From a bacterium (GTDB lineage Bacteria > Verrucomicrobiota > Kiritimatiellia > RFP12 > UBA1067), in NCBI GenBank assembly GCA_030537465.1, contig JAUNMP010000001.1, forward strand, positions 3,170-67,169: 64,000 nucleotides of DNA. Direction: 5' to 3'. The notes beneath the pieces were generated by a model that did no database searches, was not told the origin of the DNA, and saw only the letters and a list, made by a program, of their open reading frames with translations. A program made the position numbers and the translations under genes. Numbering within the stretch: position 1 is the stretch's first letter; each line of letters starts with the position of its first letter. Positions 13,156-60,010 of this stretch are shown here, piece after piece.

Positions 13156-13163
13156 GGTGACCG

Positions 13164-26455: not shown

Positions 26456-28279
26456 ATGAAGATTCATCGTCAGATTGTTTGCTGGCTGGTGGTTTCCGCG
26501 GTCTCGGCGACAGCTGAGACAATTGACGTAAAGTTCAACTACGGGGGACCTCGGGGAAAGCCGAAGATTGAATCGCGCAAGGTTGAACTGAAGCCTCTGG
26601 AAACGGGCGGCTGGCGTTATACGCTGCCGTCCACGGAGATTCCGGAACGGGCCCTCTCCGTGGAGGCGACTGTCCCCGCGCTGCTTTCGGCGCAGAAGGG
26701 CGAGGATGGATTCTGGGTGCTGCCGGATGGACGATATGGCGCGTTCAATCAGGAGAACGGCGTGTGTCTGGAGCGTCCGCGGCGGTCCATTCTGCCATTT
26801 GCCGGCTTCAAGTCGCCTCGGGGCTGCTGGATGGTCATCGTTCGAGGGCTCCGTCTGGAGTGCGACTTCGGCGTGACGGCGACGAATGGACTCTACCGGA
26901 TGTCCGTCTTTCTGCGGACGGGGGAACTGGATCGTCCTGCCTACGAGGGCGGCGTCATCGACATTCTGCCGATGCCGACGGATGCGACCTATGTCGATTT
27001 GGCGAAACGCTACCGCGACGAACAGCTGGCGGCCGGCGTGGTGCGTCCGCTCGCCGATCGGGCGAAGGAGCGTCCCGAACTCGCCTACACGGCCGAGTCG
27101 ATTTTCGTGCGCGTCAAGCACGGATGGAAGGCGCTCAACACCGACCACGAGCAGAAAGCGAAATGGGAGCACCAGACGCCGTCGAACCAGCCGCCGATCC
27201 ACTGCGCGATTTCGTTCGACCGGTTCAAGGACATCATGCGCCGGATGAAGGAGCAGGGTATCGACAAGGCCGAGGTCTGCTCGGTTGGCGGGACGGCGGG
27301 CGGCTTCGACGGACAGTTCCCCGACGTGCTGCCGATTCCTGAAGAGTTTGGCGGCGAACGGAAATTACGCGAGGCCGTCGCCTACGGGAAGTCGCTCGGT
27401 TACCAGGTGGTCACGCATTTCGCGACCACGGCGATGTTCGAGTGCTCGAAGGAGTGGAATCCCGACTTCATCTGCCACACGAAGTCGGGTGAACTGCTGA
27501 AGAGCGGCATTGTCGCGGGCGGACGGACGCATCGGCTGTGTCCGCGCGTCTATCTCGATCACTTCATCAAGCGTGACTGGGCGACGTTCCGCGATCTCGG
27601 CTTCCGCGGTACGCACCACATCGACGTGATTTCCTGCATCCCGCCGTATGCGTGCTTCAATCCGAAGCATCCGCTCACCCGCCGCGAGAGCGCCGACTGC
27701 ATGCGGGAAATCGGTCGCTATTCTCAGCAGACGTTTGGCGGTTTTGGCTCCGAGGCGAGTTTCGACTGGATGGCGCCGTCTCTCGATTTCGCGCTCTACG
27801 TCAGCTGGTATCCCGGGTCCAAGAACGCCGAGGCGACGTCCCTCGTCGATCGCGTCGTGCCGCTTTGGCAGATCGTCTACCACGGCATCATCGTGTCGAA
27901 CCCGTTCTACGCGACGATCGACGCCTACATTGATCGCGCGGCGGGGAAGAAGGGCCTTTCGGATGATCCGTTCGGACGCTTCAGCTATCTCGGGAGCGCG
28001 GCGAACCGGATTCTCAAGGTCCACGAGTTCGGTGGCCGTCCGGTCTTCTACTACACGCTCTACGAGGACGTTGCGCCGCTCAAGCGTGCCTATGACGACT
28101 ATCGGCGCTTGTCGCATCTCCAGTATGCGTTCATGGAGGACCATCGTGAGCTTGCGAGAGATGTTTTCCTGACCCGCTACTCTACGGGAGAGGAGACGGT
28201 CGCGAACTATTCTGAAAGGCCATTCGCCTGGCGAGGACGGAGTGTGGCCTCGAAGCAGTTTGAACTTTTCACGAAATGA
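26456..28279 (+). CDS. Secreted hypothetical protein (607 aa), possibly a glycan-active enzyme
   Basis: Signal MKIHRQIVCWLVVSAVSATA. No recognisable catalytic family. Aromatic-rich, with codon usage consistent with coding and an 11-bp gap to the upstream gene. Confidence 0.5.
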   Translation: MKIHRQIVCWLVVSAVSATAETIDVKFNYGGPRGKPKIESRKVELKPLETGGWRYTLPSTEIPERALSVEATVPALLSAQKGEDGFWVLPDGRYGAFNQENGVCLERPRRSILPFAGFKSPRGCWMVIVRGLRLECDFGVTATNGLYRMSVFLRTGELDRPAYEGGVIDILPMPTDATYVDLAKRYRDEQLAAGVVRPLADRAKERPELAYTAESIFVRVKHGWKALNTDHEQKAKWEHQTPSNQPPIHCAISFDRFKDIMRRMKEQGIDKAEVCSVGGTAGGFDGQFPDVLPIPEEFGGERKLREAVAYGKSLGYQVVTHFATTAMFECSKEWNPDFICHTKSGELLKSGIVAGGRTHRLCPRVYLDHFIKRDWATFRDLGFRGTHHIDVISCIPPYACFNPKHPLTRRESADCMREIGRYSQQTFGGFGSEASFDWMAPSLDFALYVSWYPGSKNAEATSLVDRVVPLWQIVYHGIIVSNPFYATIDAYIDRAAGKKGLSDDPFGRFSYLGSAANRILKVHEFGGRPVFYYTLYEDVAPLKRAYDDYRRLSHLQYAFMEDHRELARDVFLTRYSTGEETVANYSERPFAWRGRSVASKQFELFTK

Positions 28280-34201: not shown

Positions 34202-34259
34202 TTGGGGTTGTGGAAATGTCCGGGCCGGATGCAGACCCGTGTGTATGGAGGATTTTTCG

Positions 34260-36338
34260 ATGAAGTTCGTGCCAGTCGTTCTCGCGGGGCTTGTCAGCCT
34301 TGCTGCCGCCGCCCGGCCTGCCCGCATCGAGTGGGGAAAGGCGTTCGAGAGGGATACGCTTGAGCAGGGCGCGAAGATCTTCTCGGATCGCAACTACACC
34401 TTCAATCTGCCGCCGGAATCGTTGAAGGGGGCACATTTTCTGCGCGGGTCGATCATGGGGACACGTTTCCGCGTGGTGGCGGACGGTGAACTCGTCGTGC
34501 TCACGCCGATGTTCGTCCCCGCCCGGAACGGGCATCCACCGGCGGCCTCACAGGGCGAGGCCCTGGCGAAGGTCGGTTTCAAGAAGGACGACGGACCACT
34601 TTTCCAATTGTGGGGGAAAGGCGAGATCGAGCAGGGCGAAATCTGGCGGAAGAGCGTGAAGGCCGGCGAAAGCTACGCATTCGGCAAGTTCGCGATTCCC
34701 GTGGGATTCGATGCTTCAAGTGGACTCCGCGCAACATCAAGTGTGGCGATGGAGACGCTTTACAACGGCATTCGGTTGGAGTCGGATCCGCGCGACCGCA
34801 GCGATATGACCGCGTATCGGAACTATCCGCTGCCGGTGCCGTATCTGGACAATCCCCCGGCGGTGATTCCTGTGGATGTGGGGCGGCAGCTGTTCATAGA
34901 CGACTTCCTGATCGCCGAGACGACGATGGCGCGGACCTGGCACAAGGCGCAGAAGGATTCGCGCAATCCCGTGATGGTGCCGACGACGCCGCTCGAGAAG
35001 GGCGAGCTCTCGGGGTTCGCCAAGCCAACCGAGCCGATGGCGGCGCCGTTCTCCGGCGGCGTGTGGTTCGACGGCACGGACAACCTGTTCAAGTGCTGGT
35101 ATTGTGCAGGGTGGTTCGACGGGACGGGGTACGCCTATTCGAAGGACGGCTACGACTGGATTCGTCCGAACCTCAGGGCGGTGCCGGGCACGAACCGCGT
35201 CGTGCCGCCGGCGGTCGTCGACGGCAAGCGGTCGCGCCGCGATTCGGCCGCCGTCATCCTCGATCCGGACTGCACGGGCGGGTCGCGATTCAAGATGCTG
35301 ATCTGGTCGCGTCCGCAGGGCGGTGAGTTGTTCGTTTCGGACAATGGGCTCGACTGGGGGAAGTCGACGGTCTGGGCTCCCACGGGGGATCGGTCGACGA
35401 TCTTCTACAATCCGTTCCGCAAGGTCTGGGTCTACTCGATCCGCAGTGGTTGGCATGACCGCTCGCGCGAGTATGCGGAGTCGCGCGACTTCCTGGGCGG
35501 CGCAGGACTCGAGAACCGCGTGAGGTGGCTGCGGGCGGATAGTCGCGACCAGCCGGAGACGAGCTGGATCTACAGCGAACCAGGCAACTTCGACACCGAT
35601 GCCCGCGCGGCGTCGCTCTACAACTTCGACGCCGTTGCCTATGAGTCGCTGATGCTCGGCGCGTTCACGCTGATGACGGGCGCGGACAATGGTGATTGCA
35701 GCAAGCGTGACCACCCGAAGATGACCGACATCCACCTTGGCTTCAGCCGCGACGGATTCCATTTCTCCCGCGCCGAGGACCGTTCGCCGTTCATTGTCGC
35801 CTCGCGGAAGGCGGGCACGTGGGACCGCGGCTATCTGCATTCGAACGCGGCGCTGTGCCTGGTGGACGGCGATGAACTGAAATTCTACTATACGGGCTTC
35901 GCGGGCAAGACGGGCGAGTACAAGGACCGAGCTCACAACGGCATCTATTCGAACGCCTCGATGGGTATCGCCCGCCTGCGCCGGGACGGTTTCGCGTCAA
36001 TGGATGCAGGTTCGTGCGGCGGAACGCTTGTGACGCGTCCGATCAAGTTCACGCAGGGCGACCGTCTGTTCGTCAACGCGAACGCGGCGGGTGGTTCGCT
36101 CAAGGCCGAGATTCTGGACGAGAAGGGGGCCGTGCTCTCCGTGTCGAAGGACTGGTCCGGCAACGCGACAAAGGCCGAAATCCTCGGCGGACTCGCCACG
36201 TTGGCGGGGCGGACGATTCGTCTGCGGTTCACGGCGAAGGAGGCGCAGCTCTACGCGTTCTGGTTTTCGGACGCCTCGGGCCGTAGCCGTGGCTATTTGG
36301 CTGGCGGTTCGCCGCAGCACGCCACGCTTCGTGACTAA
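34260..36338 (+). CDS. Secreted beta-propeller glycoside hydrolase-like protein (GH32/43/130-superfamily-like; family uncertain)
   Basis: GGAGGA RBS with a 7-nt spacer to ATG 34260; signal MKFVPVVLAGLVSLAAAA. WYCAGWFDGTGYAYSKDGYDW-type propeller blades are present. Confidence 0.45.
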   Translation: MKFVPVVLAGLVSLAAAARPARIEWGKAFERDTLEQGAKIFSDRNYTFNLPPESLKGAHFLRGSIMGTRFRVVADGELVVLTPMFVPARNGHPPAASQGEALAKVGFKKDDGPLFQLWGKGEIEQGEIWRKSVKAGESYAFGKFAIPVGFDASSGLRATSSVAMETLYNGIRLESDPRDRSDMTAYRNYPLPVPYLDNPPAVIPVDVGRQLFIDDFLIAETTMARTWHKAQKDSRNPVMVPTTPLEKGELSGFAKPTEPMAAPFSGGVWFDGTDNLFKCWYCAGWFDGTGYAYSKDGYDWIRPNLRAVPGTNRVVPPAVVDGKRSRRDSAAVILDPDCTGGSRFKMLIWSRPQGGELFVSDNGLDWGKSTVWAPTGDRSTIFYNPFRKVWVYSIRSGWHDRSREYAESRDFLGGAGLENRVRWLRADSRDQPETSWIYSEPGNFDTDARAASLYNFDAVAYESLMLGAFTLMTGADNGDCSKRDHPKMTDIHLGFSRDGFHFSRAEDRSPFIVASRKAGTWDRGYLHSNAALCLVDGDELKFYYTGFAGKTGEYKDRAHNGIYSNASMGIARLRRDGFASMDAGSCGGTLVTRPIKFTQGDRLFVNANAAGGSLKAEILDEKGAVLSVSKDWSGNATKAEILGGLATLAGRTIRLRFTAKEAQLYAFWFSDASGRSRGYLAGGSPQHATLRD

Positions 36339-41308: not shown

Positions 41309-44029
41309 ATGAAGAGACTTCTCTGTGGTGCTGCTTTGGTGTCCTGTTCGCTGGTATGGGCGGTGGATGCAACGCTCTCCGGGGATGGCAAGATTTCGCT
41401 TCCCGAATTGGGTGTCGAGATGGGGGTCAAGATCCACTCCGAGGGGTGGCGCGGTAGCCTCCGCGGCTTTTGCCTCCCGAAGCAGCGCTTCCCCGACGCC
41501 GAGACGGGGGTTGCGAAGTGGCGTGCCATGGCTTCGGCGAAGGACGCCACGACAAGGGCGCATGGCACGGTGGAGTTTCGTCCTGGTGCGGATGGGTCGG
41601 CGACAGTGAAGGCCGTTGCAGTTTCCGACGTGGACCAGAAGCCCGAAGCGGTGGTCTGGAGTCTGGATCTCCCGACGAGCCGCTTCGCCGGCGGATCCTG
41701 GTCGACGGAGTCCAAGAAGGGGACCTTGCCGGAAACCTTCAACGTGAAGCGGTCGGCCCTTTTCAGCGGGAAGTGTTCGCGCCTGACCTTGACGGACAAG
41801 AACGGGCGGAGCCTGACCGTTCAGTTCTCGGGGGCCACGTCGGTGCTCGTCCAGGATGGACGTCGTTGGAGCGAGACGATCACCGTGCGTCTGTTCAACA
41901 ACAAGCCCGTCTTCACGAAGGGGGCGAAGTGCGCGTTCGATTTCACTCTCGCCGCGTCCGACGGGGTGACGGTGAAGTACACGCACCCAACCATTGTCTC
42001 CGCCGGAACCGACTGGATTCCCGTCGACTATAAGAAGAACATTGTGGCGGGCAGTGCGCTCGACTTCTCGAACCAGGGACTGCAGGACGCCCCAGCCGGC
42101 AAATACGGTTGGCTGAAGAACGTCGGTGGACACTTCGAGTTCGAGGGACGCCCTGGCGTGCCGCAGCGCTTCTACGGTGTGAACCTCTGCTTCGGGGCCA
42201 ACGTGCCCGAGCACGCGGTAGCCGATGAGCTGGTGACGCGTCTCGTCCGCCTGGGCTACAACACGGTTCGCGTGCACCACTACGAACGCGACCTGCTGAC
42301 GAAGGGATACAAGGGAGGGCTTGATTTCAACGCCGAGGCCTTCGACCGATTTGACTATCTGATGGCGAAGTGCGTGGAGGCGGGTCTTTATGTGACGACG
42401 GACATCTTCGTGTCGCGTCCGGTTCGCTGGGCCGACATCGGCCGTCCCGAGCTCAAGGGCGTCGTGGAGGAGAAGGCCCTCTACAAGTGTCTGGTCGCGG
42501 TGGACGATGCCGCGTTCGCGGATTGGTGCAAGTTCGCGAAGCTCTTCCTCGAGCATATCAATCCCTATACGAAGCGGCGCTATCTGGACGAGCCTGCTCT
42601 GCCGCTCATCTCCCTGGTCAACGAGGGACAGCTCACCATGGGCTGGAGCCGTGGCGGGAAGGAGGACCCCGCGGTGCAGAAGGCCTATGCGGCGTGGCTC
42701 GCGGAGAAGCGTGCCGCCGATCCGCACTTCTGCCCCACGGCGCCGGCGACGTCCGACAAGCTTTCCGTCTACGGCAAGGACGGCAACGTGATGGCGCTCT
42801 TCATGACTGACATCGAGCGTCGGAGCGCGTCGCGGATGATCGCCTACCTGAAGGGCCTGGGCTCGAAGGCGCAGTTCACGAATGCGAACAACGGTCCGCA
42901 CCCCGTCGGCATGCAGAACGTGCGCGCAGACGTCTACGACTATGTCGACGACCACTTCTACGTCGACCATCCGCACTTCCTCGAGAAGAGGTGGCAGCTG
43001 CCGTCGAAGATCGGCAACCTCAATCCCGTGCTCGACAAGAACCTCGCGTTGATCAACCCCGCGTACGTGCGCCTGGCGGACAAGCCGTTCTGCATCACGG
43101 AGTGGAACTTCTCGGGTCCGGGCATGTACCGGGGCGTGGGCGGCATCATGACGGGGGCGCTCTCGGCACTGCAGGACTGGGACGGTCTCTGGAGGTTCGC
43201 TTATTCGCACAATGCGAAGGATCTCGTGGACGGTCCCTGCATGCCGGGCTACTTCAACGTGGGCACGGACCCGCTCGGACAGGCCTCGGATCGTGCGAGC
43301 ATCTGTCTCTTCCTGCGTCGCGATCTCGAGTCGCTGGAAGGGGGCGTTGCGCTGCGTGTGACTGACGAGGCGATTGCGGGGTCGACGAACCTCAACCGCG
43401 CGGTGATGGTGCGTCCGAAGTGGAGCGATGTGGCCTGGCGCTGTCGCGTCGCGACGGCGGGGCGTACGACGCGCATTCCAGCTGGAATGAAGGAGTTGTC
43501 GCTGACCGAGGCGCTTGCGCAGACGGAAGCGGCACCTGTTCCGACTCCCGAGTCACAGGCTTTTTCGCTGAATCGCGAGACGGGGTCGTTCATGATTTGC
43601 ACACCGCGCACGGCGGGCGGTTTTGTCCTGAACGGAACGCTTACCTGCGGCCCCGTCACCTTCACCGTCATTGACACGCCGGCGACGGTCTGGGCGAGCA
43701 GCGTGGACGCGGAGAAGTCCGATCTGCGTCATGCAAAGCGGATCCTCGTGACGCATCTCACCGACGTTCAGGCCGATGGGAACGTCTATGCGGACGAAAC
43801 CAAGACCGTGCTTCTGAAGTGGGGCCGTTCCCAACCGATCGCGCGCCGTGGCAAGGCGGAGGTCCGTCTCGCCCACGCGACGCCCGAGAAACTCGAGGTC
43901 TGGGTGCTCGACACGGCGGGCAACCGTCTGGATCTGGTTCCCTCGCGCGTGCAGGATGGGATGGTCGCCTTCACCGCCGAAATCGCCGCGCCCTTGGCAC
44001 GCATGAACTACGAGGTCGTCCTTCACTGA
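41309..44029 (+). CDS. Secreted glycoside hydrolase family 5-like enzyme (906 aa, with extra N- and C-terminal domains)
   Basis: Signal peptide. FYGVNLCFGANVPEHAVADELVTRLVRLGYNTVRVHHYE matches a GH5 TIM-barrel start. Conserved NEG (NEGQ) is present. Confidence 0.6.
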   Translation: MKRLLCGAALVSCSLVWAVDATLSGDGKISLPELGVEMGVKIHSEGWRGSLRGFCLPKQRFPDAETGVAKWRAMASAKDATTRAHGTVEFRPGADGSATVKAVAVSDVDQKPEAVVWSLDLPTSRFAGGSWSTESKKGTLPETFNVKRSALFSGKCSRLTLTDKNGRSLTVQFSGATSVLVQDGRRWSETITVRLFNNKPVFTKGAKCAFDFTLAASDGVTVKYTHPTIVSAGTDWIPVDYKKNIVAGSALDFSNQGLQDAPAGKYGWLKNVGGHFEFEGRPGVPQRFYGVNLCFGANVPEHAVADELVTRLVRLGYNTVRVHHYERDLLTKGYKGGLDFNAEAFDRFDYLMAKCVEAGLYVTTDIFVSRPVRWADIGRPELKGVVEEKALYKCLVAVDDAAFADWCKFAKLFLEHINPYTKRRYLDEPALPLISLVNEGQLTMGWSRGGKEDPAVQKAYAAWLAEKRAADPHFCPTAPATSDKLSVYGKDGNVMALFMTDIERRSASRMIAYLKGLGSKAQFTNANNGPHPVGMQNVRADVYDYVDDHFYVDHPHFLEKRWQLPSKIGNLNPVLDKNLALINPAYVRLADKPFCITEWNFSGPGMYRGVGGIMTGALSALQDWDGLWRFAYSHNAKDLVDGPCMPGYFNVGTDPLGQASDRASICLFLRRDLESLEGGVALRVTDEAIAGSTNLNRAVMVRPKWSDVAWRCRVATAGRTTRIPAGMKELSLTEALAQTEAAPVPTPESQAFSLNRETGSFMICTPRTAGGFVLNGTLTCGPVTFTVIDTPATVWASSVDAEKSDLRHAKRILVTHLTDVQADGNVYADETKTVLLKWGRSQPIARRGKAEVRLAHATPEKLEVWVLDTAGNRLDLVPSRVQDGMVAFTAEIAAPLARMNYEVVLH

Positions 44030-49549: not shown

Positions 49550-50223
49550 CGGAGATGCCCGTCGTCGCGCAGGTGGTGATGCCTGAGAAGGGGCTCTTCC
49601 TGGTGCGCTGCAATTGCGAGCCTCCGCGCTATGGCGCACAGGTTCTGGTTTCCCTCGACTATGGGCAGGACCTTGGCATGGTGACCGAGAGTGGCGAGTA
49701 CGATCCCGACCGTCATGGCTCCCGCCTGCCGGGATTCCAGCTCCTGCGTCTGAAGGCTCCCGAGGACGAGGCTGTGCTGGCCGAGAACGAAAAAATCTCG
49801 CTTGCCATGCGCACGACCTTCATGAAGGCCGCGCAGCCGATGGTTCCCGATCTGCGCGTGCCCTATGCGCGTCTGTCTTTTGCGCGCACTCGGCTTTTCA
49901 TTCGCTTTGTCTGCGGCGCGCAGCGTCCGGATCTCTCAAAGCCCATTGCCGAGATCCGTCGGCTTTTCGGGGTCTCGGTGAATGCCTGGCAGATGGGGCC
50001 TCGTGATGAGGTGAGCGTCATGGGCGGACTGGGCCCCTGTGGTCGCGCCTGCTGCTGTGCAACCTGGCAGAAGCGCTACCCGGCACGTCTTGCCGCTGAA
50101 CGCTTCAAGGGAGGCAACCCGGCAATGCTGAACGGCACATGTGGACGCTTCAAGTGCTGTCTTGCGTTCGAGAATGACGAAGTTGATGAACTTTCAATCA
50201 AAAAAGACTCAGAGAGGGAATGA
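49546..50223 (+). CDS. ricT: PSP1 C-terminal domain protein (RicT/YaaT-like)
   Basis: PSP1 Cys cluster GPCGRACCC...CGRFKCC. Conserved synteny after holB, as in Bacillus tmk-holB-yaaT. GTG start overlapping the holB stop. Confidence 0.7.
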   Translation: MTEMPVVAQVVMPEKGLFLVRCNCEPPRYGAQVLVSLDYGQDLGMVTESGEYDPDRHGSRLPGFQLLRLKAPEDEAVLAENEKISLAMRTTFMKAAQPMVPDLRVPYARLSFARTRLFIRFVCGAQRPDLSKPIAEIRRLFGVSVNAWQMGPRDEVSVMGGLGPCGRACCCATWQKRYPARLAAERFKGGNPAMLNGTCGRFKCCLAFENDEVDELSIKKDSERE

Positions 50224-50227
50224 GACG

Positions 50228-51640
50228 ATGAAAGTTTCGAGAAGAGGATTTCTTGGCGGCCTGGCGGCGGCGCCGTTCTTCGTTGGCGGATGCTTTGGTG
50301 GCGGGTATGCCGCTCCGCGCAGAGTGAATGCGAGCGATCGCATCAACGTCGCCATCATTGGATGCGGTACGCAGGCCTATGGAAATGTGAACCAGCTCCT
50401 GCAGGATCCGCGGGCGCGCATCACCGTCGTCTGCGACCCCGTCCACGAGGCGAAGACGGGGTACAGCTATGATGCGAAGAAGCCTGGCGGTTGCGTGCCG
50501 TTCAAGCAGAAGGTCGATGCGTGGTACAAGGACGTGTCCTGTCGGATGGTCGCGGACTGGCGCGATGTCATCGCCGACCCGACGATCGATGCTGTCGTCA
50601 TCTGCACGCCGGATCATTGGCACGCCATCATTTCGATCGCCGCGATGCGCGCGGGCAAGCATGTCTACTGCCAGAAGCCGCTCATGCTCTCCATCGAGGA
50701 GGGCATTGTGATGACGCGCATCGCGAAGGAGTGCGGCGTCACGTTCCAGGTCGGCAACCAGGGACGGAGCAATCCGGCGCGTCGGACGGCGAGCGAAATC
50801 ATCCGCAACAACGTGCTCGGCAAGGCGAAGAGCTGCATTGTCGGACTCCCTGGCGGCAGCGGCGGCAAGTGGGGACATCCCCTCGACACGACGCCGGTGC
50901 CGATTCCGGCCTACTTCACGAAGGAAATGTGGGATCTCTGGCAGGGGCCTGCGGCGCATTGGAAGGACAACGCCTTCATCCCCGGCATCCACGAGCCCAT
51001 GGCCTGGCGTTGGAACAAGCGCTATGGAAACGGCATGATCGCCGACTTCTCCCCGCACGAAGTCGATACGATGCACTGGGCGATGGGCCTCGAGCGTACC
51101 GGCCCCGTCGCCATCTCCAACATGGTCGCCGGCGAGTTCCAGGAGAATCGCGACATCTTCACCTGGGCGGGTTCGTTTGAGTACGACATGGAATACGCGA
51201 CCGGTTTCACCGCGCACGTGGTGAGCATGCGTCCCGGGGTGCCGCGCGGGCTGCTCTACCAGTGCGAGGAGGGAACGCTGGGACTCTACAGCAGCAAGAT
51301 CGAGATCCGCGACAAGAACGGCAAGGACATCGCCAAGGATGTGCTGCGCGACTGGAAGGCCGCCTACCGCAAGGAAGACTCGAAGATCACGCGCCTCTAT
51401 GCGCCAAAGGATGGACACTCCCATGAGAGTGACTTCCTGGACGGCATCTACGAGGGACGCCAGGTCTGCAGCGAGTGCGAGTTTGGCCACCGCACGACCA
51501 CGACGGCGCTACTGGCGAACATCTGCATCGTCGAGGGCAGAAAGGGCCTCAAGTGGGATCCGGTGGCGGAAAAGTTCGCCGACCCGACTCTGAACCGTCA
51601 TCTGTCCTGCGAATACCACAATGGCTGGAAGCTCGTCTGA
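50228..51640 (+). CDS. TAT-exported Gfo/Idh/MocA-family oxidoreductase
   Basis: TAT signal MKVSRRGFLGGLAAAPFFVGGC. Rossmann INVAIIGCGTQAYGN. The EKP-like motif CQKP follows. Confidence 0.8.
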   Translation: MKVSRRGFLGGLAAAPFFVGGCFGGGYAAPRRVNASDRINVAIIGCGTQAYGNVNQLLQDPRARITVVCDPVHEAKTGYSYDAKKPGGCVPFKQKVDAWYKDVSCRMVADWRDVIADPTIDAVVICTPDHWHAIISIAAMRAGKHVYCQKPLMLSIEEGIVMTRIAKECGVTFQVGNQGRSNPARRTASEIIRNNVLGKAKSCIVGLPGGSGGKWGHPLDTTPVPIPAYFTKEMWDLWQGPAAHWKDNAFIPGIHEPMAWRWNKRYGNGMIADFSPHEVDTMHWAMGLERTGPVAISNMVAGEFQENRDIFTWAGSFEYDMEYATGFTAHVVSMRPGVPRGLLYQCEEGTLGLYSSKIEIRDKNGKDIAKDVLRDWKAAYRKEDSKITRLYAPKDGHSHESDFLDGIYEGRQVCSECEFGHRTTTTALLANICIVEGRKGLKWDPVAEKFADPTLNRHLSCEYHNGWKLV

Positions 51641-51665
51641 CGCGCCGACGTGGAGGTCTGCAAAT

Positions 51666-52499
51666 ATGAACAATCCGATTTCCGTCTGTTCCTGGTCGTT
51701 TCAGAAGCCCATTCGGGCTGTGGCCGATGAAATGGAAAAGCTGGGCGTCCAGCATGTCCACCTCGCGCTGCAGCCGTTCCTCGAGGGTGATGCCCGTCAT
51801 GGTGCCGCCGAGGGTGCGCTCGCGAAGGGCTATGTCGAGGGGTTGATCGACGGTGGGAAGTGGAAGGTCTCGGCGTCCATGCTGTCCTTCTCCTACGAGG
51901 ACTACACGACGCCGGTCACCATCCGCAAGACCGGTGGCATCGTCCCCGACGAGCATTGGGAGGCGAACAGGAAGCTGATCCGCGAGGCGGCGAAGCTTGC
52001 CGTGCAGTTCAAGACGCCCTATCTCACGCTCCATGCCGGCTATCTTGACGAGAAGAGTCCCTCCGCCGTCGCGAAGTTCACGGACCGCGTGAAGTTCATG
52101 GCCGACGTCTGTGGCGAGAATGGACTCAAGCTGCTTCTTGAAACTGGGCAGGAGACCGCGGACGATCTGGTTCGTTTTCTCGGTACGGTGAAGAACGTCT
52201 GGGTCAATTTCGATCCGGCGAACATGCTCCTCTATGGGATGGGGGACCCTGTCGCGGCCGTTGCGAAGTTGGCGCCCTGGATCCTTCACGTCCATGCCAA
52301 AGACGCTCTGCCTTCACCTAAGCCTGGCATGGAGTGGGGAACGGAGGTCCCGTGGGGAGAGGGCAAGGTCAACGCGAAGGCTTTTCTTGCCGCACTTGAA
52401 GAAATGGGCTACAAGGGGGCGATCGCCGTTGAACGTGAGGGCGGGTCACAGCGGGCGGCCGACATCGCGCTTGCCGTGTCCCGCCTCAAAAACTCGTAA
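51666..52499 (+). CDS. Sugar phosphate isomerase/epimerase (xylose-isomerase-like TIM barrel), cytoplasmic
   Basis: No signal peptide. AP_endonuc_2-like barrel blocks (LTLHAG, LLLETGQE). Co-operonic with the Gfo/Idh/MocA gene. Confidence 0.65.
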   Translation: MNNPISVCSWSFQKPIRAVADEMEKLGVQHVHLALQPFLEGDARHGAAEGALAKGYVEGLIDGGKWKVSASMLSFSYEDYTTPVTIRKTGGIVPDEHWEANRKLIREAAKLAVQFKTPYLTLHAGYLDEKSPSAVAKFTDRVKFMADVCGENGLKLLLETGQETADDLVRFLGTVKNVWVNFDPANMLLYGMGDPVAAVAKLAPWILHVHAKDALPSPKPGMEWGTEVPWGEGKVNAKAFLAALEEMGYKGAIAVEREGGSQRAADIALAVSRLKNS

Positions 52500-54486: not shown

Positions 54487-55089
54487 ATGGACGACAAGAT
54501 CATCATCGCAATCTGGATTCTGGCTGCCTATCTGATCGGCGGCATCCCCTTTGGCTTCATCATCGGCAAGATGCGTGGCGTCGATGTGCGGACCGTTGGA
54601 TCTAAGAACATCGGCGCCACCAATGTCTATCGCACCGTGGGGCACAAGTGGGGCTTTCTGGCTTTCTTCTGTGACTTCCTCAAGGGACTTCTTCCGACGC
54701 TGGCCGCGATTCACTGGATGCCAACGGGTTTCGACCCAGTCTACGTCGGCCTTGCCTGTGTCATTGGCCACACGCTTACCCCCTACATGAAGTTCAAGGG
54801 GGGGAAGGGCGTGGCGACGGCCTTCGGCATGCTGATGGCGCTGATTCCCTGGTTGGTGCTGATCGCCTTCGCGTTGTTCGTCGTGACGGTCTGGGTGAGT
54901 CACTACATCTCGCTCGGCAGTTGTCTGGCCGCGCTCTTCCTCGCGGTGGCGATCTGGATTCCGATGCCCATCGTCCATCCCTCGCTGCCTCTGCAGATTG
55001 TGATGACTCTGCTCGGCCTGTTCGTCGTGATCAAGCACAAGAGCAACATCGTGCGCCTCGTGAAGGGCTGCGAGAACAAGATCTACTGA
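54487..55089 (+). CDS. plsY: Glycerol-3-phosphate acyltransferase PlsY
   Basis: GSKNIGATN motif. ~200 aa with 5-6 TM helices. Confidence 0.9.
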   Translation: MDDKIIIAIWILAAYLIGGIPFGFIIGKMRGVDVRTVGSKNIGATNVYRTVGHKWGFLAFFCDFLKGLLPTLAAIHWMPTGFDPVYVGLACVIGHTLTPYMKFKGGKGVATAFGMLMALIPWLVLIAFALFVVTVWVSHYISLGSCLAALFLAVAIWIPMPIVHPSLPLQIVMTLLGLFVVIKHKSNIVRLVKGCENKIY

Positions 55090-55098
55090 GGTCGTGGC

Positions 55099-58000
55099 AT
55101 GAAGAACCCGTCCGTCGCCAAGATTCACATTCTGTTCTCCGGAATCCTGCTCCTCTCGGTGGCGTGCCTGGGTGGGAAGGATTTTGGAGATTTCTACACC
55201 CGGGCCTGGTACCTGGTGGTGGACAACCCCGGTCCGGCCAAGTCCCTTTCCTGGAAGGTCTTCAACGTCGCGCCGCCTGGAACCTACGGGAATAATGTCG
55301 AGGACAAAAAATACGGGTACGAAGTCCGTCGCGAGACGGCTCCTCGGCGGATCGATACGCCCTGGATGGAGGTCTGCTTCAAGACGAATCTCCCCATTTC
55401 GTCGATTCGGATTCGTCCCTCCGTTGTCCCCGGAGAGGAGTTCGACCTCTACGGCGCGCGCCTCTATCTGCTCGACAAGGATCGTCGGATCGTCTGGCAT
55501 CACCGCGTATGGAATGCCGATGGACAGGTTGACTACGATGCCGGCATCGAGTTCTCCGACCGTGACCAGCTGGGGCAGATTCTCCCACGGCGCGAATTCC
55601 GTTCCGGTCTCGTGTCGGCGCCTGAACCTCCGAAACCTGCGAACATGCGCATGCACTTGGCGAAGGCGCTGTTCAACCCCGAGGCCCTTGAACGCGCCAT
55701 CAAGGCTTATGCCGCGCAGCATCCCGATCTGTACACAGATCAGGAGGAGCTGCTGCGGGAGCTGTCCGCCGTCCAGGCCAATCGTGATGAGAAGGCCATT
55801 GATGATCTCTCGCGCAAGGTCTTCCTGCGGCTTCCCGCGTTTCGCCGCTTCTCGGACTTTCTGGCGATTCGTCGTGGTGATGCCAATGCCATGGGAATGC
55901 CGGCGAACTGGCAGGGCAATTCGTCTGTCCCGGTCTGCGGCTATTCGAATGCCCTTGTCCGCGTGAAGCTTCTCGGCGATCAGACGAAACTGCTCGAGAG
56001 CGACTCGTTCATCGGCGATCTCGCATTGGACTACGATCTGACGAAGGTGGCGTTCTCCACCCGCAAGCCGGAGGAGGCGAAGAAGGGACCCGCCGTCAAG
56101 AATGGTTCGCATGGCGGCATCGGCGAGAGCGGCTGGTGCGTGGCCGAGATGGATCTTGACCGTCCCGGCATCATCCGCGAGCTGACGCCGACCAACACGC
56201 CGGACATCGACTACTATGACCCGATGTACCTTCCCGATGGCAAGATGTTCCTCGTCGGCACGGTGGGTTTTCAGGGAGTCCCCTGCGTGGGCGGCGCGGA
56301 CCAGGTCGGAAATCTGATGCTCCGCTACACGGATGGCCGTCTACGTCGGTTGAGCTTCGATCAGGACAACAACTGGAATCCGGTCATGCTCCCGAACGGG
56401 CGCTGCCTCTATCTGCGCTGGGAATATACGGACAGCGCGCACTACTTCGCGCGCATTCTCATGACGATGAATCCTGACGGCAGCGATCAGCAGGAGTTCT
56501 ACGGTTCCAACTCCTATTGGCCCAATTCCCTGTTCTTCACGAAGCCGGTGCCGGGATCGTCGACCAAGTTCTTCGGAATCGTCACCGGACACCATGGCGT
56601 TCGCAGGAAGGGCGAACTCGTCCTCTTCGATGTCGCCAAGGGACGCCGCGAGGAGAAGGGCGCCGTCCAGCGTCTGCCGGGCTGGGGTAAGCCGGTCACG
56701 CCAGTGACGGCAGACCGGCTTGTCAACGACGCGCGTCAGTTCTTCCTCCACCCCTATCCGCTCTCGGAGGAGGGCGTGCTGGTGGCGATGCAGGACTACG
56801 CGCACGCGAAGCACTTCTTCATCGCCTACGTGGACATCTACGACAACCAGTGGCCGATTCTTGTCTCGGAAGACGACTCGTTCAACTATCTGCAGCCGCT
56901 GCCGATCGAGAAGCGCGAGAAACCGTTCGAGGTTGCGCAGCGTGTGGATGAAACGAAGAAGACGGCATTGGTCAACCTCGTCAACATCTACGACGGTCCG
57001 GGATTGGCCGGTGTGCCGAAGGGGACCGTCAAGAAACTCCGGGTGTTCAACTACGAGTACTGCCCCCGCAAGAGCGGCAAGAAGAACTGCGGTGGTCATT
57101 ATCTGATTGGCATGGAGGGCCCCTGGGACTGCCGTGTGATGATCGGCGAAGTCGACGTCGAGGCCGACGGCAGCGCGCTCTTCGAAGCCCCCGCCAATGT
57201 GCCGCTTGTCCTGCAGCCTCTCGACGCCGAGGGAAAGCACCTTCAGGAGATGCGCAGCTGGTTTGCCGCGATGCCGGGCGAAACGGTGTCTTGCCTCGGC
57301 TGCCATCAGGACCAGAATGCCGCGCCGCCGGCGGGACGGCGGACGATTGCCTCCCAGAAGGCTCCGCAGCAGATCAATTCCTGGTATGGCCCTCGCCGCA
57401 ACTTCGATTTCGCCCGCGAAGTCGCGAATGTCGTCGAGCGTCGCTGCAGTGGATGCCACGATGGTACGCCGGAGAAGAAGAACGTCCTCGGTCAGCTTCT
57501 CCCCAAATTGAATGGCACGCCTCGTGAGATCTACGACAACCTCCATCCCTATGTCCGCCGCAACGGACCCGAGGGCGACTACCATCTGCTGACGCCGGCC
57601 GAGTTCCATGCGGACACCAGTGAACTCTGGCAGCGCCTTGCAGTAGGTCACCACGGGGTTCGGTTGACGCAGGAAGAAAAAGACCGTCTTCTGGCGTGGA
57701 TGAACCTCAATGTGCCATTCTACGGAACCTGGAGCGAAACGGGATGCCCCGATCCGCAGATGATCAGGCGTCGCCGCGAGCTTGAACGCCAGGTCGCGAA
57801 CATCACCTTTGATCCAGAGACCGTCTATAAGCCCTACGTGAAGGCTGCGTTTGAACTGCCGACCTCCGTGGACGTGCCTGCGGACCGTGTCATGTCTTCG
57901 TCTCCCGCCGACTCGGCGTTGAAGACGCCCCGCACGCTCTCCTTGCAGCTCACGGCAACGTCGGCGATTCGACTCCGCGCTGTCCCCGGTGGTATTTACA

Positions 58001-58668
58001 TGGGTGAGACGGAGGTGACGCTCGGCCAGATGCGGGCCTTTGATCCAACGTTCGACAACGGCGTCTATGACATGCACTACAAGGACCAGGTCAAGCGGGG
58101 CTACTATATGAACGACGACCCCGTCTTCGGAAAGCCCGAAAACGTCAATCTTCCGGCGGTGCGCGTCTCGTACGAACAGGCCACGGCCTTCTGCCGCTGG
58201 CTCTCCGAAAAGACCGGTCGCAAGGTGCGCCTGCCGACGGAGACCGAGTGGGAACGTGCGAGCGGTGTGCAGAAGGATAAACCGTTCCATTGGGGCGGTT
58301 TCGACGTCGATTTCTCGCCCTACGCAAATCTCGCGGACGTCACGCGCCGCGAGCTGGCCGTGACGGGAATCAATCCCAAGCCGATTCCCAATCCAGGGAA
58401 GGACATCGATTTCGAATTGAAGGATGACCGTTTCGACGACGGGGTGCTTCATCTCGCTCTGGTTGGGTCGTATAAACCCAACACCTATGGTCTGTATGAC
58501 ATGGTCGGCAATGCCTCAGAATGGACCTCGACAGATTTTGGGGAAGGGCGCAAGGTCACCAAGGGTGGGAGCTTCAACGATCGTCCGCACAAGGCGCTTC
58601 TTCGTTGGGGGTATCCAACGTGGATGCGGCCTTTTGATGTCGGGTTCCGTGTTGTCGTCGAGGAGTAG
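55099..58668 (+). CDS. Large exported multidomain protein: N-terminal discoidin-like region, PD40/TolB-like beta-propeller, two CxxCH heme-c-type motifs, C-terminal formylglycine-generating-enzyme (FGE/SUMF1) domain
   Basis: Signal MKNPSVAKIHILFSGILLLSVAC. Propeller blades LPDGKMFLVG, MLPNGRCLYLRW, MNPDGSDQQEFYG. CxxCH motifs SCLGCHQ and RCSGCHDG. FGE blocks VRLPTETEWERASG, YGLYDMVGNASEWT and KGGSFND. Confidence 0.75.
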   Translation: MKNPSVAKIHILFSGILLLSVACLGGKDFGDFYTRAWYLVVDNPGPAKSLSWKVFNVAPPGTYGNNVEDKKYGYEVRRETAPRRIDTPWMEVCFKTNLPISSIRIRPSVVPGEEFDLYGARLYLLDKDRRIVWHHRVWNADGQVDYDAGIEFSDRDQLGQILPRREFRSGLVSAPEPPKPANMRMHLAKALFNPEALERAIKAYAAQHPDLYTDQEELLRELSAVQANRDEKAIDDLSRKVFLRLPAFRRFSDFLAIRRGDANAMGMPANWQGNSSVPVCGYSNALVRVKLLGDQTKLLESDSFIGDLALDYDLTKVAFSTRKPEEAKKGPAVKNGSHGGIGESGWCVAEMDLDRPGIIRELTPTNTPDIDYYDPMYLPDGKMFLVGTVGFQGVPCVGGADQVGNLMLRYTDGRLRRLSFDQDNNWNPVMLPNGRCLYLRWEYTDSAHYFARILMTMNPDGSDQQEFYGSNSYWPNSLFFTKPVPGSSTKFFGIVTGHHGVRRKGELVLFDVAKGRREEKGAVQRLPGWGKPVTPVTADRLVNDARQFFLHPYPLSEEGVLVAMQDYAHAKHFFIAYVDIYDNQWPILVSEDDSFNYLQPLPIEKREKPFEVAQRVDETKKTALVNLVNIYDGPGLAGVPKGTVKKLRVFNYEYCPRKSGKKNCGGHYLIGMEGPWDCRVMIGEVDVEADGSALFEAPANVPLVLQPLDAEGKHLQEMRSWFAAMPGETVSCLGCHQDQNAAPPAGRRTIASQKAPQQINSWYGPRRNFDFAREVANVVERRCSGCHDGTPEKKNVLGQLLPKLNGTPREIYDNLHPYVRRNGPEGDYHLLTPAEFHADTSELWQRLAVGHHGVRLTQEEKDRLLAWMNLNVPFYGTWSETGCPDPQMIRRRRELERQVANITFDPETVYKPYVKAAFELPTSVDVPADRVMSSSPADSALKTPRTLSLQLTATSAIRLRAVPGGIYMGETEVTLGQMRAFDPTFDNGVYDMHYKDQVKRGYYMNDDPVFGKPENVNLPAVRVSYEQATAFCRWLSEKTGRKVRLPTETEWERASGVQKDKPFHWGGFDVDFSPYANLADVTRRELAVTGINPKPIPNPGKDIDFELKDDRFDDGVLHLALVGSYKPNTYGLYDMVGNASEWTSTDFGEGRKVTKGGSFNDRPHKALLRWGYPTWMRPFDVGFRVVVEE

Positions 58669-58676
58669 GCTGCCGC

Positions 58677-58967
58677 GTGGAAATTGTCGAAGTCCAGGGT
58701 GTTCAGGCCGAGGTCGCTCGCACGCTCTTTGCGCGGATGCGAGGGCTCATTGGCCGCAGCGGACTTCCGCCTGGTGTGGGAATGTTGATTCTCAAGTGCA
58801 ACGCCATCCATACGTTCTTCATGCGCTTCCCCATTGATGCCGTCTTTCTGGACCGCAATGATCAGGTTGTGAAGGTGGTCCGTGACATCCGCCCCTGGCG
58901 TCCTTTTGTCTGGGGCGGATGGCGGGCGAAGAAGGTCCTTGAATTGGATAGTCGAAACAGAGCATGA
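58677..58967 (+). CDS. DUF192 domain protein (COG1430)
   Basis: ARMRGLIGRSGLPPGVGMLILKCNAIHTFFMRFPIDAVFLDRNDQVVKV matches the DUF192 core (GLMgr..l..gmlF...iwMkntliplD.iFld). GTG start. Confidence 0.55.
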   Translation: MEIVEVQGVQAEVARTLFARMRGLIGRSGLPPGVGMLILKCNAIHTFFMRFPIDAVFLDRNDQVVKVVRDIRPWRPFVWGGWRAKKVLELDSRNRA

Positions 58968-58978
58968 TGGGAGGAATT

Positions 58979-60010
58979 ATGCAGGAGCGAAATGTGAAGA
59001 GACTTGCCGTTCTCATTGATGCGGACAACGTGAGTCCGGCGCAGGCGAGTGAGATTTTCAAGACCGTTTCCACGCTAGGCGAGCCGATTGTCCGTCGCGC
59101 CTATGGAATGGTCAACTGCTTCTCGGTCAGCGGCGGCTGGAATGTCGCTCAACGGGAATATGGCATTGTGTCCAAACCGCAGGTGAGCAACGTCTCGGGC
59201 AAGAACGTCGCCGACATCGCCCTGGTGATTGATGCGATGGAAATGCTTTACAAGAGTTCTGTAGACGGCATTTGCATTGTGTCCAGCGACAGCGATTTCA
59301 CGGCGCTGGCGGCAAAGATCCGCGAGGGAGGGAAACATGTCTTCGGTGTCGGCAGCAAGAAGACCCCCGCGAGCTTCCGGACAGCCTGCACGCGTTTCTT
59401 CGAATTGGTGCAAGTCAAGAAGCCGTCCAAGGAAAAGACTCCTAGCGGTTCAAGTGTCTGCCCCCGGTGTGGCGGAAAACTTGAGATGTCCCATACTAAG
59501 TCCCGTCAGGTGTGCCGTTCCTGTCCTTCGTGTGGGGGGATGACGGCGAAGATCTCGACCTTGAGGAAGTCCTTCGCGCCCGAAAGCCTGCAGCTTGTCG
59601 TGGAGAGCGCGAAGCGTCACGAGGTCTCAGGGTGCATTTGTCCAGACTGTGGATCGTCGATGAGCATCGTCAAGGTCGCTGCGGGAAAGCGCCAGGTTGA
59701 GATCGACGTCTGCGGGAAGTGTCAGACAGTCTGGTATGACAAAGACGAATTCGAGGCCCTGGTGCCGACGGATGGTGTGCTGCAGGCGACGGTTTCCGCG
59801 GGCAAGGCCTATCGAAGGGATCTCGTGGTGGCGGTGGCGGCAGATCTGCGGACAGGGCGCTGCAAAGTCTCCGACATTGGAGCTTTGAAGACGGTTCTCA
59901 AAAAGGTCTACTTCGCTCCGAATCCGGACGTTCAACCCATCATTGACGCGTTACGGTGTCAAAAGGTCATCTCTCTCGATAAAACGGGAAAGATCACTGT
60001 GCTTCAGTGA
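58979..60010 (+). CDS. NYN-domain (PIN-like RNase) protein with two zf-TFIIB-type zinc ribbons and a C-terminal possible OST-HTH/LOTUS-like tail
   Basis: NYN blocks RLAVLIDADNVSP, KNVADIALVIDAMEMLY and ICIVSSDSDFTALAAKIREGGKHVFGVG. Zinc ribbons CPRCGGKLE...CRSCPSCGG and CPDCGSSMS...IDVCGKCQTVWYDKDEFEAL (zf-TFIIB, PF13453-like). Confidence 0.65.
   Translation: MQERNVKRLAVLIDADNVSPAQASEIFKTVSTLGEPIVRRAYGMVNCFSVSGGWNVAQREYGIVSKPQVSNVSGKNVADIALVIDAMEMLYKSSVDGICIVSSDSDFTALAAKIREGGKHVFGVGSKKTPASFRTACTRFFELVQVKKPSKEKTPSGSSVCPRCGGKLEMSHTKSRQVCRSCPSCGGMTAKISTLRKSFAPESLQLVVESAKRHEVSGCICPDCGSSMSIVKVAAGKRQVEIDVCGKCQTVWYDKDEFEALVPTDGVLQATVSAGKAYRRDLVVAVAADLRTGRCKVSDIGALKTVLKKVYFAPNPDVQPIIDALRCQKVISLDKTGKITVLQ

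Follow-up and report, generated by a model that had tools for sequence, protein, structure and literature searches.

A predicted exported dihaem cytochrome from Kiritimatiellia in which a hydrazine synthase alpha-like core is joined to an FGE-like domain lacking the catalytic cysteine pair

What does an FGE domain do at the end of a large exported protein that also carries two CxxCH haem-binding motifs? The question is raised by the gene at 55099-58668 in a 64-kb stretch (~61% GC) of the Kiritimatiellia contig JAUNMP010000001.1; the whole of this stretch is called the window in the following, ~55 kb of it lying upstream of the gene and ~5 kb downstream. In a preliminary description, made from the DNA letters, the product was proposed to be a redox-coupled modifying enzyme of the FGE type or, as a second option, to present an FGE-fold binding domain in a new context. 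The comparisons reported here lead to a different centre of gravity. Over residues ~250-900 the protein is homologous, along the full length, to hydrazine synthase (HZS) alpha, with the same three-part layout, and the gene belongs with the recently recognised non-anammox HZS-alpha-like cytochromes, being set apart from them by a nearly universal pseudo-FGE domain and by carbohydrate-binding modules.

A profile of 35 family cores was compared with the whole PDB and gave a sole match, chain A of the Kuenenia stuttgartiensis enzyme (5c2v_A), with E 2.2e-15 and in five colinear stretches running from the propeller to the second haem motif. Using phmmer, residues ~638-790, both CxxCH motifs included, were aligned to the same chain, and the middle domain was placed on its residues 453-590 by phmmer and 498-562 by the family profile. 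When the AlphaFold2 model of the protein was submitted to Foldseek, 5c2v_D/A was matched along ~820 columns (E 1.6e-23; target-based TM 0.55), the whole HZS-alpha chain being spanned, and TolB was matched to the propeller with E ~5e-9, which bears out the PD40/TolB-like propeller of the preliminary description. The domain check proposed there was likewise borne out as far as the Pfam FGE-sulfatase domain (aa 967-1186) and the cytochrome contexts of the CxxCH motifs are concerned; the HZS-alpha homology of the ~650 central residues had been missed.

Like HZS-alpha (PDB 5C2V chain A), the window protein is exported, its modules follow each other in the order propeller, haem-bearing middle domain and C-terminal cytochrome c domain, both CxxCH motifs stand at homologous positions, and its relatives have a beta-gamma-like partner alongside. 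Its cytochrome c domain is class-I-like. Unlike HZS-alpha, it has Asn740 in the place of Tyr591 as well as extra N-terminal lectin-like and C-terminal FGE-like domains, and neither hzsB nor hzsC nor an anammox context was found in the 64-kb window. The cutoff of the NCBIfam equivalog NF052339 (hydrazine_alpha) was missed, the score being 41.7 vs 800 bits.

Among the window ORFs (open reading frames) of at least 150 aa, this gene is the only one bearing a CxxCH motif. Exactly two such motifs, ~50 residues apart, were found in 121 of 121 sequences, i.e. in the window protein and 120 homologues, and because both are present in all of these a chance occurrence can be set aside. Weak cytochrome c matches of Pfam surround them (aa 728-815). 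Since both motifs also align with the haem-attachment sites of the solved HZS-alpha structure, the two c-type haem motifs of the preliminary description are upheld; they lie very probably in genuine c-type haem contexts, with real haems.

The haem alpha-I of HZS-alpha is unusual in that the histidine of its CxxCH motif (His587) is a zinc ligand, the iron having Tyr591 as its ligand (PMC12607021). The position of Tyr591, +4 from the CxxCH histidine, is occupied in the window protein by Asn740, within a conserved CxGCH-x-x-Q-N motif; across the family Q739 does not vary, and conservation of N740 is at least 90%. Because Asn740 replaces the tyrosine, conventional ligation of haem 1 by its histidine would be expected, and the Tyr/Zn arrangement would not. 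The HZS-alpha regions of the Zn site (Cys303 and His587) and of the distal His772 did not align, either with phmmer or with the family profile. In the case of haem 2, the residue H851, invariant in the family, is a candidate sixth (distal) ligand.

The most conserved motifs of the family (WEYTDSAHYF..MTMNPDGSDQQEFYGSNSYWPN, GHHG and LHP) are held by the propeller, which also shows the lowest nonsynonymous divergence (dN) of all domains. The loops modelled with low pLDDT (predicted local distance difference test) values, aa 442-471, 666-676, 734-743 and 822-832, coincide with the most conserved blocks, namely WEYTDSAHYF...GSNSYWPN, GGHY..GPWD, the haem-1 motif and RRNGPEGDYH. The model is cofactor-free, and these loops may be segments which fold around haem or substrate.

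Distant homologues of HZS-alpha and of a fused beta-gamma subunit have been described in non-anammox bacteria (Hagglund et al. 2025, Genome Biol Evol, PMC12758564) and were sorted into clades I-IV. They are co-localised, they occur in Planctomycetota and other anaerobes, the key HZS residues are not conserved in them, and no function was assigned. The window family belongs to the same superfamily; it retains both haems, whereas clades II-III are without haem alpha-II. The text of that paper makes no mention of an FGE/SUMF domain, of sulfatases, of lectin modules or of ketose-catabolism neighbours. Among the matches listed in its supplementary hit table, FGE-annotated proteins stand only in the low-score tail, and its alignment covers clades I-III only. 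The window family may overlap with clade IV. Novipirellula artificiosorum is named among the species of clades I and IV (PMC12758564), and the partner family treated below includes a 'cytochrome c peroxidase' of this species, a close relative of the ~620-aa partner. Nothing relevant was found in the literature on an HZS/FGE/lectin/cytochrome fusion or on a LsrF-DhaK-lyxose isomerase module.

The C-terminal domain has the fold and the motifs RLPTE.EWE, GN..EWT and GGS[FW] in common with FGE/SUMF1, and its PDB matches include the human, S. coelicolor and T. curvata FGE structures. In FGE, the Cu(I)-binding catalytic Cys pair, C336/C341 of the human enzyme, is located C-terminal to the GGS[YW] motif. 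The corresponding segment of the window protein, NDRPHKALLRWGYPTWMRPFDVGFRVVVEE, which lies past GNASEWT and KGGSF, is cysteine-free, there is no Cys in the final 62 residues, and the alignment with human FGE does not extend beyond 'EWT'. Downstream of the last GGS[WFY], no Cys was found in 117 of the 121 sequences, one in 4 and two in none. FGE chemistry would be ruled out because the Cys pair is missing from the segment where FGE carries it. The domain, as judged from its sequence, is a pseudo-FGE without the Cu-binding Cys pair, and the description of it as a canonical FGE domain has to be given up for all 121 sequences.

The best-scoring relatives of the FGE-fold domain are PorK/GldK, followed by PvdO, ToxD and FGE. 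All family scores remained far under the cutoffs (GldK, TIGR03525, 63.7 vs 350 bits; PvdO 43.7 vs 500; EgtB 23.3 vs 360), and the PorK/GldK match was limited to aa ~1010-1150. PorK/GldK, the ring lipoprotein of the type IX secretion system, PvdO and the C-domains of EgtB/OvoA resemble the window domain in having the FGE fold without the Cys pair. The periplasmic location of PorK and PvdO, and the lipid anchor of PorK, would be further points in common with the window protein. Unlike it, none of them is fused to a haem/propeller module. The FGE-like domain has in addition the invariant aromatic or His residues Y990, H993, Y1002 and W1175, in an insertion not seen in FGE.

Sulfatase genes were not found in the 64-kb window. 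In the ~1.03 Mb flanking 80 related loci 9 sulfatase ORFs were counted, with a sulfatase within 10 kb in 7 of the 80 loci, which, judged without a background rate, does not look like enrichment for sulfatase-rich genomes. The window domain differs from FGE/SUMF1 in the missing Cu Cys pair and in being the C-terminal part of a 1189-aa exported cytochrome, and no sulfatase linkage was found for it in the window and these flanks. With the Cu-site Cys pair missing and no such linkage found there, the redox-coupled FGE modifying enzyme of the preliminary description is not supported, and the other possibility named in it, a new setting for a binding domain of FGE fold, fits the data. Two observations had been named there as speaking together against the proposal, loss of the Cys pair and CxxCH motifs in non-haem contexts; the pair is indeed missing, yet the CxxCH motifs stand, by the alignments described above, in what appear to be genuine haem contexts.

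The N-terminus of the protein, MKNPSVAKIHILFSGILLLSVAC, agrees with a lipobox pattern of the PROSITE type; the residue at -3, Ser, is not the most canonical one there. The pattern was positive for the window protein and for 11 of the 120 homologues, the others being without a lipobox-like Cys; ordinary signal peptides were apparent in the remaining homologues, whose N-termini were inspected in 28 aligned sequences. The signal would be processed at C23 and the protein is probably lipid-anchored.

The domain following the signal had been called discoidin-like. Alone, the N-terminal domain of the window protein gave no significant Pfam or PDB sequence match; by means of profiles it could be recognised as a degenerate F-type lectin. 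The family N-terminal profile matched fucolectins (FBP32, 3cqo, E 1.3e-27; also S. mitis Sm-hPAF, the pneumococcal fucolectin-related protein and AAA, the eel (Anguilla) agglutinin 1k12), and comparison of the window-clade N-domain with the lectin-type N-domain by hhalign resulted in a probability of 98% and E 2e-13. Most family N-domains match F-type lectins and keep the His...Arg...Arg triad context (H...R.D....R), xTH[TS] being present in 92 of the 121 sequences. In contrast, the window-clade domain is shortened by a 22-residue deletion, and in the hhalign alignment the positions of the His/Arg/Arg fucose triad are replaced or deleted; fucose binding by the window clade is not expected for these reasons. 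The window N-domain is predicted to be a degenerate but conserved lectin-like beta-sandwich. The helical linker behind it ('FNPEALERAIKAYA...') has A196, A200 and P209 conserved in the alignment.

The homology search covered 5.8 billion proteins and gave 1546 matches, of which the best 120 were examined together with the window protein. These 120 homologues are full-length and 44-94% identical, and Pfam divides them in the same way, into an F5/8-type-C or F-type lectin domain, HZS_alpha and FGE-sulfatase. In a species scan with one genome per species, relatives were encoded in at least 594 species genomes from Kiritimatiellia, Lentisphaerae, Verrucomicrobiota (including Akkermansiaceae) and Planctomycetota. 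The closest of these genomes (71-76% identity) were metagenome-assembled genomes of gut Kiritimatiellia from horse faeces and goat omasum, and Novipirellula herctigrandis is a cultured planctomycete carrier. A search restricted to the core (aa 250-945) yielded 4477 cluster representatives (clusters formed at 50% identity) at E <= 1e-3 and 1067 at E <= 1e-30. Among the best 150 core matches, 108 have a tail of at least 300 residues past the last CxxCH, and FGE motifs are present in 92 of these 108. Relatives swap the lectin for Laminin_G_3, SASA sialate-O-acetylesterase, NPCBM or F5/8C N-terminal modules; with variable binding N-termini round an invariant core, they resemble carbohydrate-active enzymes in their modular layout. 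In strictly anaerobic Kiritimatiellales, 11-20 genes with an FGE domain were noted, and an alternative function was speculated for them (van Vliet et al. 2019, PMC6388578), and the present family accounts for at least some of the FGE-domain genes of these anaerobes. A separate search of the 5.8-billion-protein collection with a 138-aa stretch of K. stuttgartiensis HZS-alpha returned only five short sequences of 83-153 aa; unexpectedly, a complete anammox HZS-alpha was not among them.

When the gene was compared with two orthologues, dN was 0.16-0.17 and the synonymous divergence (dS) was saturated; by domain, dN was ~0.10 for the propeller and for the haem domains, as compared with 0.19-0.23 for the N-terminal domain and the FGE-like one. 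All domains are clearly under purifying selection, the propeller and haem domains being the most constrained. The ORF 55099..58668 (+ strand, 1189 aa), in which the ATG is the earliest start codon past the in-frame stop and GC at third codon positions (GC3) is 0.76, as in other real genes of the window, is a genuine gene under purifying selection. Antisense ORFs within it (e.g. 56341-58452, minus strand, 703 aa) were judged most likely to be high-GC artefacts, because the gene frame has a GC3 of 0.76 vs 0.53-0.66 in several large minus-strand ORFs elsewhere in the window, which have no Pfam match.

In order to compare the surroundings of the family, 80 related loci were surveyed and a partner was counted when it lay within 10 kb. 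A ~620-aa beta-propeller/dihaem protein of CCP/MauG-like type is encoded in 14 of the 80 loci, often directly adjacent. Its best PDB sequence matches are HZS-beta (E 2.7e-20) and HZS-gamma (E 4.2e-20), its best NCBIfam match is the HZS beta-gamma fusion, and the MauG, MbnH and His-Xaa-Ser-associated MauG-like families of NCBIfam are matched weakly. By these matches the neighbour amounts to a putative fused HZS-beta-gamma-like partner in non-anammox bacteria of the PVC group (Planctomycetota, Verrucomicrobiota and allied phyla). In each of two giant proteins, P0159 (3230 aa) and P0184 (2831 aa), a single polypeptide unites PATR repeats, the alpha-like core with its FGE-like domain, PKD repeats and a beta-gamma-like module made up of propeller, CCP_MauG and cytochrome c; in P0159, residues 2131-2727 can be aligned with the neighbour protein from one end to the other (E 3e-91). 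These chains are a Rosetta-stone link between the alpha-like and the beta-gamma-like components.

A cytoplasmic ketose-catabolism module, on the same strand, is wholly or partly present in 18 of the 80 loci. It consists of an IclR regulator (often upstream), a cupin resembling D-lyxose/mannose isomerase (profile vs 7NZO, E 3.6e-22), an unannotated 105-aa protein, DhaK, DhaL and LsrF (equivalog score 450 bits vs a cutoff of 297), sometimes with Pta-like, Rid/FkbO-like and Mala s 1-like genes. Partner and module occur together in 7 loci and either of them in 25, in Verrucomicrobiota, Planctomycetota and Kiritimatiellia; the latter set includes L004 and L005, the closest outgroups of the window clade (52-53% identical). 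The positions of these genes and of the features of the window protein are collected in Table 1.

Several loci showed further arrangements. In Novipirellula herctigrandis CA13 two paralogues (L039:4119-7679 and L039:9779-13399) flank the beta-gamma-like gene, and tandem or double family copies are also present in L002, L022 and L057. In Pontiella desulfatans F1 (L085:2668-11788) a pair of ~820-aa HZS_alpha proteins is encoded in tandem, next to genes for a beta-gamma-like protein, an Fe-ADH and an aldo-keto reductase. The member of this pair that was compared with the window protein is without an FGE domain, carries the first haem motif only and is 27% identical to the window core. The genes of NrfA/NrfH lie at L085:19171-21106, 8 kb from the HZS-like cluster of this strict anaerobe. 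The Pontiella cluster shows that c-type cytochromes are made in the phylum and that FGE-less variants exist.

Table 1. Location of the features of the window protein, of its neighbouring genes and of the partner and ketose genes in related loci
Feature	Residues or motif	Position	Strand	Basis or remark
Signal peptide with lipobox-like end	aa 1-23 (...LLLSVA-C23)	55099..55167	+	sequence, pattern test
N-terminal beta-sandwich, degenerate F-type lectin (predicted)	aa ~30-150	55186..55548	+	AlphaFold2 strands, pLDDT ~80; profile comparison
Conserved helical linker	aa 183-250	55645..55848	+	AlphaFold2 helices, pLDDT >90
TolB/PD40-like beta-propeller	aa ~253-640	55855..57018	+	Foldseek to 5c2v_A/D and TolB
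HZS_alpha middle domain	aa 642-737	57022..57309	+	Pfam PF18582, E 2.8e-28, profile positions 1-98 of 98
Haem-1 motif	C732-L-G-C735-H736 (CLGCH, aa 732-736)	57292..57306	+	aligned to CSGCH, haem alpha-I of 5c2v_A
Helical cytochrome c-type domain	aa ~765-900	57391..57798	+	AlphaFold2 helices; weak Cytochrome_CBB3 match, aa 772-815
Haem-2 motif	C783-S-G-C786-H787 (CSGCH, aa 783-787)	57445..57459	+	aligned to CAMCH, haem alpha-II of 5c2v_A
FGE-fold domain	aa 946-1189 and stop codon	57934..58668	+	Pfam PF03781, aa 967-1186, E 2.3e-27
plsY		54487-55089		PF02660; 9 nt gap to gene 55099-58668
DUF192 gene		58677-58967		starts 8 nt after gene 55099-58668
NYN/zinc-ribbon gene		58964-60010		3' of the DUF192 gene
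Beta-gamma-like partner (related loci)		L067:11445-13307		also in L062, L077, L036, L046, L039, L060, L080, L035 and others
Ketose module (related loci)		L036:13148-18907; L046:13042-19844; L039:157-4027; L060:7567-12671; L004:12641-16181		

We consider it rather likely that the product is a dihaem cytochrome of the c type, exported and probably held by a lipid anchor, with an HZS-alpha-like core and a non-catalytic FGE-like domain, which acts in a periplasmic redox step on a carbohydrate-derived substrate. Haem 1 (His736) would be the reaction centre, facing a pocket of invariant propeller and middle-domain motifs, while haem 2 (His787, probably with His851) would exchange electrons with a partner. 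The FGE-like domain, which is kept in almost all close relatives, would be an integral non-redox part, a wall for substrate or partner binding or a scaffold, as in PorK, PvdO and EgtB. The role would be neither sulfatase maturation nor hydrazine synthesis. A glycan-directed role is suggested because the carbohydrate-binding N-termini are variable, the family is linked or fused to the beta-gamma partner and the ketose kinase/thiolase module is present in relatives. As a tentative and rather doubtful extension, the FGE-fused proteins may be the alpha-type subunit of a new HZS-like haem complex with a fused beta-gamma-like MauG/CCP subunit, performing periplasmic redox chemistry on glycans or glycan-derived sugars in PVC bacteria; the product would feed a DhaKL/LsrF-type ketose pathway, and the same protein pool would have been the source of the anammox HZS.

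A number of points weigh against the carbohydrate-directed cytochrome. Haem binding, the distal ligands and catalysis are predicted, and the AlphaFold2 model is of moderate quality (mean pLDDT 73.5, pTM 0.65). The degenerate lectin of the window clade weakens the glycan argument for the window protein. Neither a beta-gamma-like gene nor a ketose module was found in the 64-kb window, and the window copy is stand-alone; the reasoning based on the partner is borrowed from relatives with 40-55% identity. It is also conceivable that the ketose genes found beside family members form an operon of their own with a separate function. The surroundings of the gene in gut Kiritimatiellia are housekeeping genes, which vary between close relatives, and no ccm/ccs gene for cytochrome c maturation was present among the scanned ORFs of the window.

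Of the other explanations, a non-catalytic envelope scaffold is, in our opinion, unlikely. In this case a TolB-like propeller would be combined with a PorK/GldK-like lipoprotein of FGE fold to organise an assembly in the outer membrane or the periplasm, and the haems would be structural or simple electron relays. The match of the propeller to TolB, the best match of the FGE part to PorK, the lipobox-like signal and the housekeeping neighbourhoods (plsY, adk, map, rpsA) in Kiritimatiellia would be in line with such a role. However, conservation is strongest in the propeller and middle-domain loops round the haem-1 motif, a pattern usual for active sites, and the relatives display the modularity of carbohydrate-active enzymes, with variable carbohydrate-binding modules. 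The family is moreover linked and fused to an enzyme module of MauG/CCP type, and the 63.7 bits obtained with GldK are to be set against its cutoff of 350.

It is quite improbable that the window protein is the target or carrier of a MauG-like maturase. According to this explanation the beta-gamma-like partner would oxidise a residue of the alpha/FGE-like protein, giving rise to a protein-derived cofactor (cf. MauG/MADH, MbnH/MbnP), and the mature protein would bind a metal or act as a quinoprotein. The weak matches of the partner to the MauG, MbnH and His-Xaa-Ser-associated MauG-like families, the invariant Y990, H993, Y1002 and W1175 and the fusion of the partner to the alpha module in P0159 and P0184 could be understood in this way. 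The partner is, however, closer to HZS-beta and HZS-gamma than to MauG, it is absent from the 64-kb window, and we know of no precedent tying the FGE fold to protein-derived cofactors.

Nitrogen chemistry of the HZS kind, in which NH2OH or NO would be bound at haem 1 for detoxification or for N-N/N-C bond formation together with the beta-gamma-like partner, appears very improbable. The homology itself, of the whole alpha module to HZS-alpha and of the partner to HZS-beta and HZS-gamma, is what speaks for it, along with the Rid/FkbO-like (imine-handling) genes which adjoin the pair in 5 loci and with NrfAH near the HZS-like cluster in Pontiella. Against this stand the replacement of the Tyr591 ligand by Asn, the hydrazine_alpha score far below its cutoff, and the hosts, which are glycan-degrading heterotrophs and in which the fused modules are carbohydrate-related; the key HZS residues are not conserved in the published non-anammox homologues either (PMC12758564).

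FGE and anSME act on the unfolded sulfatase, before or during export, which counts against an FGE working in the periplasm. A haem-coupled periplasmic FGE, oxidising the Cys of exported sulfatases by means of two c-type haems and not copper, is hardly credible, in spite of the clearly present FGE fold, the occurrence of the family in sulfatase-rich PVC lineages, the many unexplained FGE-domain genes of strict anaerobes in this phylum (PMC6388578), and the sulfatase genes within 10 kb in 7 of 80 loci, since the catalytic pair is missing in all 121 sequences, sulfatases number none in the window and 9 in the ~1.03 Mb of flanks, and the FGE part scores best against the non-FGE fold members PorK/GldK and PvdO.

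The location of the gene between plsY and the DUF192/NYN genes, as well as the length of its product, agreed with the preliminary description in both positions and Pfam matches, apart from the gap to plsY, given as 10 bp and recounted as 9 nt. Co-transcription with plsY, also put forward there, may hold in the source genome, the gap being short and terminator-free, but conservation is lacking: even an orthologue with 88% identity has other neighbours, adk-map upstream and rpsA-rpmB downstream. A plsY/DUF192/NYN operon as a functional clue was rejected, the neighbours being different in 88%-, 75%- and 45%-identical relatives. The promoter and terminator scan around the gene gave no signal above shuffled expectation. 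The DUF192 gene overlaps the NYN gene by 4 nt, and the two are probably translationally coupled; the NYN protein has several zinc-ribbon motifs, and the pair is unrelated to the gene 55099-58668 as far as tested.

Other flanking genes of the window encode a double GT2 glycosyltransferase, LysE and a melibiase-like hydrolase, and the remaining content includes GH2, amylase, GDSL esterase, DUF6259+CBM4_9 and GDPD-BNR proteins. This gene content is typical of a glycan degrader. A GFO/IDH/MocA oxidoreductase (50141-51640) and a xylose-isomerase-like TIM-barrel protein (51621-52499) are encoded with a 20 nt overlap 2.6 kb upstream of the gene; such pairing is typical of oxidative (keto-sugar) glycoside-processing systems. 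The 2095-aa ORF at 20157-26444 (GC3 0.77), whose sole match is a C-terminal DUF4886, encodes a large uncharacterised protein, probably glycan-related, and is followed by a DUF5696 protein (26456-28279). Two further ORFs, 34239-36338 (699 aa) and 41309-44029 (906 aa), have a gene-like GC3 of 0.81 and no Pfam match at E <= 1e-4. At 11713-14558 a DctM membrane component of a TRAP transporter is directly followed by EutB, the large subunit of ethanolamine ammonia-lyase (E 9e-213).

To our knowledge, hydrazine synthase was long believed to be without relatives. In the present family both haem sites are kept, often together with a paired or fused beta-gamma-like partner, and it is found in at least 594 species genomes in four PVC lineages; the ancestral pool of HZS relatives is much broader than the few homologues discussed in 2025 (PMC12758564). 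As regards annotation, members of this family have no FGE active site and are dihaem HZS-alpha homologues, and the 'paradox' that strictly anaerobic Kiritimatiellota have many FGE genes (PMC6388578) is thereby resolved in part. The window gene itself is of lower value in this respect, being a stand-alone copy with a degenerate lectin and no visible partner. As to function, the family provides a lead, open to experimental test, towards a new redox step of glycan degradation in the periplasm, and if the HZS-like glycan complex proposed above proved true, it would represent a new class of carbohydrate-active redox enzyme.

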